From an uncultured Alphaproteobacteria bacterium (lineage in GTDB: Bacteria > Pseudomonadota > Alphaproteobacteria > HIMB59 > GCA-002718135): a DNA stretch of 64,000 nucleotides. The position numbers and the translations under genes were made by a program. The notes beneath the pieces are model-generated. The model did not search any database. It was not told the DNA's origin and saw nothing but the letters and a program-made list of their open reading frames with translations. The DNA lies in the NCBI GenBank assembly GCA_902623255.1, contig CACNSY010000001.1:152328-216327 (forward strand). The letters are read 5' to 3'. This document shows, one piece after another, positions 7,503-52,694 of this stretch; the first letter of the stretch is position 1, and every line of letters starts with the position of its first letter.

Positions 7503-7579
7503 TGGCGCGAGAGACGGGATTCGAACCCGCGGCCTCTGCCGTGACAGGGCAGCGTTCTAACCAGCTGAACTACTCCCGC
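7503..7579 (-). tRNA. tRNA-Asp(GTC)
   Basis: Reverse complement GCGGGAGTAGTTCAGCTGGTTAGAACGCTGCCCTGTCACGGCAGAGGCCGCGGGTTCGAATCCCGTCTCTCGCGCCA, cloverleaf with CCA. Confidence 0.97.
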
Positions 7580-7582
7580 GCA

Positions 7583-7658
7583 TGGTGGGTGTTGAGAGAC
7601 TTGAACTCCCGACCCTCTCGGTGTAAACGAGATGCTCTACCAACTGAGCTAAACACCC
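7583..7658 (-). tRNA. tRNA-Val(TAC)
   Basis: Reverse complement GGGTGTTTAGCTCAGTTGGTAGAGCATCTCGTTTACACCGAGAGGGTCGGGAGTTCAAGTCTCTCAACACCCACCA. Confidence 0.97.
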
Positions 7659-13764: not shown

Positions 13765-13849
13765 TGGTAGGCCGGAAAGGACTTGAACCTTCACACCTCG
13801 CGGCACTAGAACCTAAATCTAGCGTGTCTACCAATTCCACCACCGGCCC
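13765..13849 (-). tRNA. tRNA-Leu(TAG)
   Basis: Reverse complement GGGCCGGTGGTGGAATTGGTAGACACGCTAGATTTAGGTTCTAGTGCCGCGAGGTGTGAAGGTTCAAGTCCTTTCCGGCCTACCA, long variable arm. Confidence 0.96.
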
Positions 13850-13916
13850 TATTATTATTAGCCTTTTATGTACAATAAATTAAAAAACAATAGAGAAAAT
13901 TAATTAATATTGAGAA

Positions 13917-13994
13917 TGGGGCGAACGATGGGATTCGAACCCACGGCATCAGGCACCACAAGCCTGCGCTCTAACCAACTGAGCTACGCTCGCC
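13917..13994 (-). tRNA. tRNA-His(GTG) with encoded G-1 and C73
   Basis: Reverse complement G-GCGAGCG-TAGCTCAGTTGGTTAGAGCGCAGGCTTGTGGTGCCTGATGCCGTGGGTTCGAATCCCAT-CGTTCGC-C-CCA. Confidence 0.96.
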
Positions 13995-14046: not shown

Positions 14047-15542
<1,496 letters not shown>

Positions 15543-15583
15543 TTTTTCTTTACTTTTATATAAAACCTAGTAATTATCCAATA

Positions 15584-15633
15584 ATCGTTCAACTCTTTTA
15601 GAGTCGGAAGTAGGCATTGTGCCGAAGGAACGC
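15584..15633 (+). ncRNA. Glutamine riboswitch (glnA motif), aptamer 1
   Basis: ATCGTTCA-ACTC(TTTTA)GAGT-CGGAAGTA-GGC(ATTGT)GCC-GAAGGAACGC: P1 CGTTC/GAACG, two hairpins, AGTA/GAA E-loop, as in glnA RNA motif; in glnA leader. Confidence 0.85.
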
Positions 15634-15648
15634 ATGCAAAAGTTATAA

Positions 15649-15701
15649 ATCGTTCAACCTATTTTTATAGGTCGGAAGTAAGCCATAAGCTGAAGGAACG
15701 C
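15649..15701 (+). ncRNA. Glutamine riboswitch (glnA motif), aptamer 2
   Basis: ATCGTTCA-ACCTA(TTTTA)TAGGT-CGGAAGTA-AGC(CATAA)GCT-GAAGGAACGC: same conserved core as aptamer 1 with covarying stems. Confidence 0.85.
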
Positions 15702-15741
15702 GCATCAAAAGCAGATTTCATAACTAGAGCATGATTTAACC

Positions 15742-15771
15742 GGGTAACGCTGGATAGCATACCCTTTTGTT
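15742..15771 (+). terminator. Candidate leader terminator (riboswitch expression platform)
   Basis: GGGTA-AC-GCT(GGAT)AGC-A-TACCC followed by TTTTGTT, just upstream of the glnA RBS (AAGGAG). Confidence 0.55.
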
Positions 15772-15788
15772 GAAGTAAGGAGATAGAT

Positions 15789-17219
15789 ATGAAATTAAAA
15801 AGCTCGACTCCAAAAGATTTAATGTCTGAAATTAAAGATATGGACATTAAGATGGTTGATATGCGCTTTACTGATATACCAGGAACAACTCAACATTTTA
15901 CAATACCAATTAAATTTTTAGACGAAGATATATTTTCTGACGGACTTGGTTTTGATGGATCTTCGGTAAGAGGTTTCCAAGAAATTCAAGACAGTGATAT
16001 GATTGTTTTGCCAGATGCAACAACAGCTTATATTGATCCATTTTTTTCAGAAAAAACTTTGGCATTACATTGTAATATTAAAGATCCTGTAACTTTGGTT
16101 GACTATAGTCGTGACCCAAGAAATATTGCTAAAAAAGCTGAAGCCTATTTGAAATCATCTGGTATTGGTGACACAGCATTTTTTGGTCCAGAAGCAGAAT
16201 TTTTTGTGTTTAATAACGTTCAGTTTGACTCAGGATCAAATTTTGCATTTCATGAAGTTGATTCTGTTGAAGGTACTTGGAATAGTGGTGCTGATGAAAA
16301 CCCAAATTTAGGTCATAAGCCTAGACATAAAGAAGGTTATTTTCCTTTACCGCCAGTTGATACACTTCAAGATGTAAGAACTGAAATGGTAATGACAATG
16401 CAAGACATTGGTCTTACAGTTGAAGCACATCACCATGAAGTTGCAACAGGTGGACAATGTGAAATTGATTTAGAATTTTCGCCTTTACTAAAAATGGCTG
16501 ATGATATGATGAAATATAAGTACGTTGTTAAAAATGTTGCAAGACAACATGGAATGACAGCTACATTTATGCCTAAACCTTTATTCGAAGATAATGGTTC
16601 AGGTATGCACGTTCATCAAAGTGTTTGGAAAGACGGTGACACATTAATGTATAAAGAGGGTAACTATGCTAACCTAAGTGATTTAGCTCTAAATTATATT
16701 GGTGGTATACTTAAACATGCACCTGCTCTTTTAGCTTTTTGTGCTCCTACTACTAATTCTTATAAAAGATTGGTCCCAGGCTTTGAGGCTCCAGTGAACA
16801 TTGTTTACTCTCAAAGAAATAGAACTGCATCTGTTAGAATTCCTGCTTATTCTCAAAGCCCTAAAGCAAAAAGAATGGAATTTAGATGTCCAGATCCAAG
16901 TGCAAATCCATACTTAGCATTCTCAGCAATGTTAATGGCAGGATTAGACGGGATTAAAAATAAAATTAATCCTGGTGATCCAACAGATATAAATCTCTAT
17001 GCTGCTAGCGATGAAGTTTTGTCTAAAATTCAATCTACGCCTGGATCTTTAGCTGAATCTCTTGAAGCTCTTGAAAAGGATCATGCATTTTTATTAGAGG
17101 GTGATGTATTCACCAAAGATGTAATTGAAACTTATATTAGCTATAAAAAAGAGAGTGAGGTTGATCCAATTAATATTAGACCTCATCCACACGAGTTTAA
17201 ACTATACTACGACGTGTAG
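15789..17219 (+). CDS. glnA: Glutamine synthetase type I (GSI-beta)
   Basis: [56 protein letters not shown] adenylylation-site Tyr. Confidence 0.98.
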
Positions 17220-17241
17220 AATTATACTTATCTCTATAAAG

Positions 17242-17267
17242 AAAACCGCCTTAGGGCGGTTTTTTTT
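17242..17267 (+). terminator. Intrinsic terminator after glnA
   Basis: AAAACCGCC(TTAG)GGCGGTTTTTTTT. Confidence 0.9.
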
Positions 17268-17303
17268 ATGTTTTTAGAACAACACTTTTGATAAGAAATA
17301 TAT

Positions 17304-25556: not shown

Positions 25557-25632
<76 letters not shown>

Positions 25633-52619: not shown

Positions 52620-52694
52620 GCTGATATAGTATAATGGTTATTACAGGCCGTTGGTAACGGTCAGATTCAAGTTCGATTCTCGGTATCAGCACCA
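52620..52694 (+). tRNA. tRNA-Thr(GGT)
   Basis: GCTGATATAGTATAATGGTTATTACAGGCCGTTGGTAACGGTCAGATTCAAGTTCGATTCTCGGTATCAGCACCA. Confidence 0.92.

Follow-up and report, generated by a model that had tools for sequence, protein, structure and literature searches.

A tandem glutamine riboswitch in the glnA leader

We examined a window of 64,000 nucleotides (nt) from contig CACNSY010000001.1 of an uncultured alphaproteobacterium, in which a glnB gene encoding P-II is followed by a leader and by glnA, the gene for a type-I glutamine synthetase. A preliminary description of this leader, made from its letters alone, had placed a tandem glutamine riboswitch there, and the Rfam covariance model RF01739 recovered it: two aptamers, both full length (model positions 1-53 of 53, plus strand), lie head to tail with scores (Table 1) above the gathering score of 35 and E-values, calculated over all 64 kb, of about 5e-12. 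With the glnA ATG 85 nt downstream on the same (+) strand, the tandem lies in the 5′ untranslated region of a nitrogen-metabolism gene.

Stems that differ between the two copies while keeping their pairing, which had also been pointed out in the preliminary description, are a general property of these leaders. Across 40 distinct homologous glnA leaders, 14 of the 26 stem pairs have changed on both sides (14/16 in the four inner stems) and 99.2% of cells in the aptamer stems are paired, a value equalled by none of 500 shuffles and compared with 26-43% in slid controls, while P1 of both aptamers is invariant in 40/40 leaders. Alignment to the consensus shows the junction sequences CGGAAGUA and GAAGGAACG in both aptamers, and the C directly 3′ of P1 is kept in each, at positions 15633 and 15701. 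These are two genuine type-1 glutamine aptamers with one shared expression platform in the glnA 5′ untranslated region, and L-glutamine is their predicted ligand. Downstream of them the window likewise has the three further elements of the preliminary description: a hairpin, a U-run and a ribosome-binding site.

Table 1. Features of the glnB-glnA region, in window coordinates.
Feature	Position	Strand	Basis or detail
glnB (P-II), upstream gene	15201..15542	+	Pfam PF00543, 114.8 bits
Terminator-like hairpin closing glnB, then T-run	15524-15540	+	terminator scan
Promoter-like boxes, separate glnA transcript	15548..15577	+	-35-like CTTTAC(T) 15548-15554, 17-nt spacer, -10-like AATTAT 15572-15577
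Glutamine aptamer 1	15584..15636	+	RF01739, 64.3 bits; P1 = 15586-15590 with 15628-15632
Inter-aptamer linker CAUGC-AAA-AGUUAU	15633..15646	+	proposed 5′ strand of long-range helix P0
Glutamine aptamer 2	15649..15704	+	RF01739, 64.7 bits; P1 = 15651-15655 with 15696-15700
Trailer AUUUCAUAACU-AGA-GCAUG	15715..15733	+	invariant columns; proposed P0 3′ strand = 15720-15725 + 15729-15733
Anti-start-codon stretch AUUUCAUA, overlapping trailer	15715-15722	+	complementary to UAUGAAAU
Structured spacer ('terminator' of the preliminary description)	15735..15774	+	hairpin GGGUAACGCUGGAUAGCAUACCC 15742-15764 and possible lower stem
Spacer lower stem UUUAAC / GUUGAA	15735-15740 / 15769-15774	+	UUUU 15765-15768 between hairpin and 3′ strand
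U-run UUUUGUU after hairpin	15765-15771	+	sequence
Translation initiation region	15777..15795	+	ribosome-binding site AAGGAG 15777-15782, ATG 15789, UAUGAAAU 15788-15795
glnA (type-I glutamine synthetase)	15789..17219	+	Pfam PF00120 463.8 bits, PF03951 103.8 bits
Strong terminator after glnA	17235-17270	+	terminator scan

The leader has promoter-like boxes of its own. CTTTAC is conserved in an alignment of 72 leaders, always equally far from aptamer 1, and a consensus scan did not flag the boxes at 15548..15577 in the window. As glnB ends in a terminator-like hairpin whose T-run overlaps the conserved -35-like CTTTAC box (15524-15554), the two genes look as if they were transcribed separately and not as one simple glnBA operon. 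In four of four metatranscriptome runs, from four studies, RNA-derived contigs join the leader to glnA across the hairpin (15583-16291, 15583-15991, 15687-15991 and 15707-16021); these, like the data of all 24 runs available, are assembled contigs, which show neither the ends nor the levels of molecules, and no RNA end near 15770 was listed. Two of the four, each from another study, share a start at 15583, seven bases downstream of the -10-like AATTAT; this is a weak hint of a transcript start only, because the upstream DNA is strain-variable and may break assemblies.

Elsewhere in the window, and unrelated to the riboswitch, lie six tRNA genes, four of them as two close pairs (7506-7658, 13768-13993, 25560-25632 and 52620-52691).

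The linker, the trailer and the spacer hairpin

The conserved parts of the leader outside the aptamers are the linker between them and a trailer that follows the second. Within the 40 leaders CAUGC is invariant and AGUUAU nearly so, and over all genera and four operons both the linker consensus (CAUGC, one to three A, AGUUAU) and the trailer consensus (AUUUC(C)AUA(A/G)CU, two or three nt, GCAUG) are near-invariant; the aptamer stems and the spacer hairpin vary freely while linker and trailer stay fixed. The association holds however the leaders are collected: the linker is present in 35/35 tandems found by RF01739 alone and in 69/69 found through GlnA, and the strict trailer core in 32/35 and 69/69 of these, respectively. 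Metagenome tandems fetched by the linker alone carry the strict trailer core in 62 of 67 cases, the other 5 being near-variants.

Linker and trailer are complementary to one another over 11 base pairs (bp), and the resulting helix, here called P0, would enclose aptamer 2. The trailer is also complementary to the start of the gene, where UAUG is invariant and AAAU nearly invariant. In the alignments 96.8% of 439 cells are paired for P0 and 98.8% of 320 cells for the helix between trailer and start (AUUUCAUA with UAUGAAAU), compared with 12-46% in slid controls for the two long-range helices. The partner differs among leaders. The UUUCAUA of the trailer pairs with UAUGAAA at the glnA start; a second trailer type, AAUUUCCAUA, found in amtB leaders and in the glnA leaders of one genus, pairs with UAUGGAGGUU, the ribosome-binding site; and a CCAUAG trailer in the ATP-grasp leader pairs with CUAUGG, at the start of an upstream open reading frame (ORF) of 17-20 codons. 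Judged from these sequences, the type of trailer changes together with the initiation region that it targets.

Folding energies place the two long-range pairings close to one another. When both aptamers were forced, the P0 state and the state with the trailer on the initiation region lay 0.6-6 kcal/mol apart in 11/11 leaders (-40.1 and -41.9 kcal/mol, respectively, in the window). The P0 state leaves the initiation region entirely unpaired, and in the alternative 12 of its 20 nt are paired. For the window, the duplex between trailer and initiation region is predicted at -8.1 kcal/mol (RNAduplex), a value matched by 14 of 499 control regions, which were initiation regions bearing a ribosome-binding site.

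Two very short reading frames also occur in these segments: AUG CAA AAG UUA UAA in the linker (within 15634-15648), preceded by the Shine-Dalgarno-like GAAGGA of aptamer 1, and AUG AUU UAA in the trailer (15731-15739). Their frames and lengths are not conserved among leader types, and we rejected them as functional elements, reading them as by-products of the GCAUG boxes.

Between the trailer and the ribosome-binding site stands the spacer hairpin. In 23 genus-like leaders 5 of the 8 pairs of its upper stem have changed on both sides, and in the equivalent hairpin of 42 leaders from other genera 9/10 pairs have done so, with 93.8% of cells paired and 0/500 shuffles as good. From this pattern of substitution, the spacer hairpin is a real, selected structure, conserved in structure rather than in sequence. 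Its lower stem, UUUAAC/GUUGAA, is 94.9% paired with no double changes and could put the U-run inside an internal loop. In the loop of the hairpin, a closing A-U pair and a loop U (window approximately 15751-15756) are kept in more than 90% of the 42 leaders from other genera, and such near-invariant positions hint at a specific contact.

The preliminary description had read this hairpin as the terminator of a transcriptional OFF platform. On that account glutamine locks P1 of aptamer 2, so that GGGUAACG can fold into the GGGUA..UACCC-UUUU hairpin and end transcription ahead of glnA, while without glutamine GGGUAACG pairs with CGUUCAACCU of aptamer 2 and antiterminates. Several of its elements are present: besides the double changes in the upper stem, the antiterminator duplex exists in the window (RNAduplex, -6.0 kcal/mol), a clean hairpin followed by six to eight U occurs in some other genera (leaders L095, L094 and L011), and hairpin and UUUUGUUG are kept in 43/44 leaders of the genus under a lax criterion (a 5-bp stem, then at least 5 U in 8 nt), so that attenuation is possible there. 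That criterion also passes 16 of 21 leaders in a second set, with many spurious passes over the two sets, and is nearly uninformative because the DNA has 29% G+C. The antiterminator is not conserved in relatives. It needs AACG in the 5′ arm of the hairpin, where variants within the genus read GGGUAAGG, GGGUAUCG, GGGUUAUG, AGGUAUAG, GGGUAAAG and GGGUAACA, and in 22 leaders of other genera the corresponding aptamer 2 duplex reaches only -5.2 to +1.3 kcal/mol. The terminator stem itself is weak (5+3 bp, -7.3 kcal/mol) and was missed by the consensus terminator scan that flagged the glnB and glnA terminators; the U-run is absent from the nearest metagenomic sister leaders (CCUAUUAAAUAAAGG) and from many other genera (tails CAAUGUUA, UAACUUGA and UAAUGUUA). 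The RNA contigs that cross the hairpin in all four runs show that read-through exists, which is compatible with conditional termination and hence with either model. Finally, a terminator leaves the invariant linker and trailer unexplained. With its antiterminator pairing variable, its U-run lost in sister leaders and its stem weak, we find the transcriptional OFF platform unsupported as it was first proposed and regard control of glnA by this terminator as improbable.

Host lineage, regulon and nitrogen-control proteins

GlnA loci 97-100% identical to that of the window come from uncultured Alphaproteobacteria and from Pelagibacteraceae bacterium AG-337-I02, and loci 74-78% identical from MarineAlpha5 and HIMB59-LRMED-201. 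The alphaproteobacterial host supposed in the preliminary description is borne out by these assignments, which point to a marine member of the AEGEAN-169/HIMB59 order. Its own genome assembly comprises 1.47 Mb in 47 contigs, is 87% complete and has a G+C content of about 29%. RF01739 was found in 112 of 115 genomes of the host family, with up to eight aptamers per genome, and in 0/60 genomes of a sister family in the same order; among 150 other alphaproteobacterial families, represented by one genome each, a single family had a match, and that was a single aptamer. The AEGEAN-169-type family thereby supplies the host for marine glnA motifs that the preliminary description had anticipated. Passages of Klahn 2018 (PMC6212724) call both the taxonomic affiliation of the marine glnA-linked motifs and the effect of glutamine on them unknown.

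The riboswitch of this family is not confined to glnA. The two most complete relatives (96% and 92%) have four tandems, which precede glnA, two ammonium transporter genes and an operon with a circularly permuted ATP-grasp gene. The riboswitch-headed transporters belong to the 'marine subtype' TIGR03644 (574 and 535 bits). In the amtB and ATP-grasp leaders, too, the tandems carry the linker and trailer core described above. We propose that the shared module marks a regulon-wide glutamine sensor, which in relatives would head the amtB paralogues and the ATP-grasp operon as well as glnA. Of the four, the tandems of glnA and of the ATP-grasp operon occur in the window's own genome, and no ammonium transporter was found in this 87%-complete assembly.

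Several further observations concern these operons. The second tandem of the own genome lies upstream of the ATP-grasp gene (PF14403/PF04174) on the minus strand (G000 contig C25:3869-3990, equivalent to L001 1435-1556). In the ATP-grasp leader a 20-codon upstream ORF, whose stop codon overlaps the ATP-grasp start (TAATG), has a start codon complementary to the trailer. Adjacent paralogous TIGR03644 transporters, each with its own tandem, occur at L127/L133 (G079 C1:460733-462894) and at L123/L129 (G038), with no glnK nearby. Before a third, more distant Amt-family gene (426 amino acids) two relatives, G010 and G111, carry a single aptamer without the linker/trailer module (leaders L006 and L131); its tail after P1 begins CAGUUAUAG or CAUUCCUUU, and its polarity may differ from that of the tandems.

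The preliminary description had supposed that RNA replaces Ntr control in this organism, and the classical Ntr system is indeed largely missing. The sigma-54 DNA-binding domain PF04552 scored above its cut-off in 0/40 genomes of the genus, the window's own included, and in 0/24 sister-family genomes (4/14 control genomes were positive). The GlnD/GlnE domain PF08335 was found in none of the 40 genus genomes and in none of nine further genomes of the family (seven other genera and the two best assemblies), and is present in 24/24 sister-family genomes, in an ORF of about 860 amino acids. The GlnE domain PF03710 was not found in the own genome, the one genome searched for it. The own genome and the two best relatives have one P-II each, and a complete sister-family genome has two. 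The sole response regulator with a sigma-54-interaction domain is NtrX-like (398.6 bits, below the cut-off of 600), and no NtrB/NtrC pair accompanies it; its start is overlapped by an NtrY-type kinase gene (NtrY_N, HAMP, HisKA and HATPase domains; G000 C1:98274-101742, equivalent to L141 3275-6743, minus strand). Going by gene content, the lineage has lost GlnD, GlnE, GlnK, NtrBC and sigma-54 and keeps one P-II together with NtrY/NtrX. Riboswitch and GlnD are thus complementary in their distribution, the host family having the riboswitch without GlnD and the sister family GlnD without the riboswitch.

The P-II protein of the window (15201-15542) has an unusual, slightly longer T-loop. Loss of the uridylylation tyrosine was considered and rejected: a Tyr stays at the likely equivalent position, as judged without an aligned comparison, even though GlnD was not found in the lineage. 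A third regulatory state occurs within the family in G114 (genus g8, 93% complete), which is without riboswitch, GlnD or any P-II match.

Proposed switching and comparison with known systems

How might the linker and trailer act? We put at about even odds a reading in which the platform of the glnA leader controls translation through an inverter, OFF with glutamine. Without glutamine, the linker 3′ of aptamer 1 (C15633-AUGC..AGUUAU) would pair with the trailer (AUAACU..GCAUG, 15720-15733) to form P0 around aptamer 2; the trailer would then be occupied, the ribosome-binding site and AUG would lie open, and glutamine synthetase would be made. Once glutamine is bound, the C 3′ of P1 would be drawn into the long-range G-C pair of the aptamer and the helix attached to P1 would melt. 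P0 would open, and the freed AUUUCAUA (15715-15722) would pair with UAUGAAAU (15788-15795) across the spacer hairpin, blocking initiation.

The ligand-dependent step is modelled on the known aptamer. According to passages of Klahn 2018 (PMC6212724) that relay Ren 2015, glutamine induces the pair G23-C60, in which C60 lies just 3′ of P1, and melts a short P1-attached helix. In aptamer 1 the base corresponding to C60 is C15633, at which P0 begins; as the ligand reportedly melts the P1-attached helix, an inverter with OFF polarity is the simplest reading. We infer both that P0 and the pairing of trailer with start codon alternate and that glutamine favours OFF, the latter by analogy with the solved aptamer and the phage tandems, and this polarity fits the expected physiology of glnA and amtB. 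The original proposal that glutamine shuts glnA off accordingly survives in part: OFF polarity is plausible, by another route, and its passage through a terminator is unsupported.

A number of observations weigh against the translational inverter, and the first concerns its polarity. By nearest-neighbour rules P1 can coexist with P0, and each could make the other more stable, which would make an ON switch. On this opposite view, glutamine folds both aptamers and stabilises P0 by compaction and stacking, while in the unbound RNA the P1 strands swap, a loop holds the linker and the start is closed by the trailer. When the window leader is folded without constraints, its minimum-free-energy structure has swapped P1 together with the helix between trailer and start, as this view would predict for the unbound state. 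An ON switch would have glutamine induce glutamine synthetase and ammonium transporters, contrary to known bacterial nitrogen control. It also sits poorly with the marine phage tandems of ON type: in 57/60 the 7 nt after P1 of aptamer 2 form a direct helix with the ribosome-binding-site segment, and in 60/60 the linker/trailer module is absent; because these do without the module, its presence here fits an inverted logic. The published record bears on both sides. According to passages of Klahn 2018 (PMC6212724), the glutamine riboswitches tested experimentally are all ON; the same passages call negative regulation 'reasonable' for the glnA-linked copies and describe the effect of the ligand on the P1-adjacent helix as melting, not stabilising. 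On balance we think an ON switch unlikely.

Other observations concern the two long-range helices themselves. In neither has any pair changed on both sides, and covariation gives no verdict on P0 or on the helix between trailer and start because both never vary. Seven leaders with AGUUUG or AGUUAG in the linker break P0 pairs without compensation; these carry an extra AC in the tail, offering AAAGUU with AACUUU instead. For the trailer AUAGCA of 2 metagenome leaders no compensating change in the linker was found. Shuffled versions of the whole leader fold as stably as the leader itself (z = -0.26). The duplexes between trailer and initiation region are modestly better than those of controls, with 3-37 of the 499 control regions as good for most glnA leaders and 112-117 for L085 and L012; for the amtB leaders 30-135 controls were as good, i.e. 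there was no enrichment, because the control regions themselves pair with a trailer that resembles an anti-ribosome-binding-site sequence. To these must be added the attenuation that is possible in leaders of the genus, mentioned above, and the nature of the contrast in GlnD content, which is a single evolutionary event with exceptions in G122, with both aptamer and GlnD, and in G114, with neither.

If it is the sequence rather than the pairing that is conserved, linker and trailer might not switch at all, and might instead form a site for a protein (a P-II partner, NtrX, an RNase or an Hfq-like factor), serve processing, or make tertiary contacts through which the aptamers become cooperative. 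The missing covariation, the uncompensated variants of both segments and the nearly invariant positions in the spacer hairpin loop are what such a role would predict. It would not predict that linker and trailer are complementary to one another over the whole of P0, nor that in four different operons the trailer can pair with the particular initiation region downstream of it, and no candidate protein was identified; we hold a role of this kind to be very unlikely.

A broader and more doubtful extension of the translational inverter is that the tandem, with its linker and trailer, is the only glutamine sensor of the cell and replaces GlnD, GlnK and NtrBC over the ammonium-assimilation regulon. 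Each aptamer would then free one half of the anti-initiation sequence, aptamer 1 by way of P0 and aptamer 2 by way of the tail held by its P1. If the extension holds, repression would need both sites to be filled, giving a steep two-input OFF gate made from an aptamer whose other known uses are all as an ON switch.

The riboswitch class is already known, and its tandem arrangement has been known from metagenomes since 2010. New here are the host family, the complementary distribution with GlnD, the four-operon regulon and a conserved platform of the proposed inverter type, acting on translation. Marine glnA-linked riboswitches belong, at least largely, to one family of abundant, streamlined AEGEAN-169-type alphaproteobacteria, and in that family RNA heads every ammonium-assimilation operon while the protein glutamine sensor GlnD is missing. 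The effect of glutamine on glnA can now be tested against a concrete, mutation-ready model of linker, trailer and start codon; were it correct, the addition of a single inverter segment would have turned one aptamer class from an ON into an OFF switch. We found no publication that ties glnA-linked riboswitches to the AEGEAN-169/HIMB59 lineage or describes the linker/trailer platform, within a body of searched text to which Ames & Breaker 2011 and the supplements of Klahn 2018, which may bear on tandem architecture and metagenomic gene associations, did not belong. The words 'riboswitch', 'glnA' and 'glutamine' do not occur in the AEGEAN-169 genomics paper PMC10308909, and RF01739 is noted in SAR86 in a section of a 2025 paper (PMC12379486).

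The nearest experimentally studied relative is the gifB (IF17) leader of Synechocystis which, as far as the passages of Klahn 2018 (PMC6212724) go, shares with the present leader its RF01739 family, its junction and the C 3′ of P1. In both, the nucleotides after P1 stand in a helix expected to melt with ligand, and control is most likely translational. gifB has one aptamer whose tail is proposed to pair directly with the ribosome-binding site, and its ON response to glutamine has been shown experimentally; the glnA leader has two, the tail of aptamer 1 would pair with a trailer that is itself complementary to the start-codon region, and OFF is its proposed polarity. The controlled genes differ accordingly, glnA and amtB here and an inhibitor of glutamine synthetase in the case of gifB. 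Pairing of the gifB type between tail and ribosome-binding site was seen in 0/165 leaders of the present type, in which the equivalents from aptamer 1 face the trailer instead.

Copies of glutamine riboswitches in phages have been reported (parts of PMC9004378 and PMC5473149). The 60 distinct marine phage tandems considered here resemble the glnA leader in that one platform follows a head-to-tail pair of RF01739 aptamers. Their target is a gene for a small basic protein and their direct ON design was described above. Of 61 distinct phage tandems, 59 have a linker of 6-11 nt, one of 5 nt and one of 25 nt; CAUUAUCAU and CAUCUU are examples. The CAUGC..GUU linker was found in 0/60, and a viral scan found the present type of linker pattern in no viral contig.

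The glnA RNA motifs of marine metagenomes, some of them in tandem, that are described in sections of Weinberg 2010 (PMC2864571) almost certainly represent the same sequence population as the leaders studied here. Those sections give neither host nor expression platform; the present analysis supplies the host family, a regulon of four operons, the module of linker and trailer and the lack of GlnD.

A last comparison is with a riboswitch of unrelated fold and ligand. In the tandem glycine riboswitch the helix between leader and linker is a contact within the sensor, whereas the long-range helix of the glnA leader is a proposed switching element. The two systems are nonetheless alike in plan, since in both two amino-acid aptamers serve one platform (PMC5066625 for the glycine riboswitch) and conserved sequence outside the aptamer cores ties the domains together.

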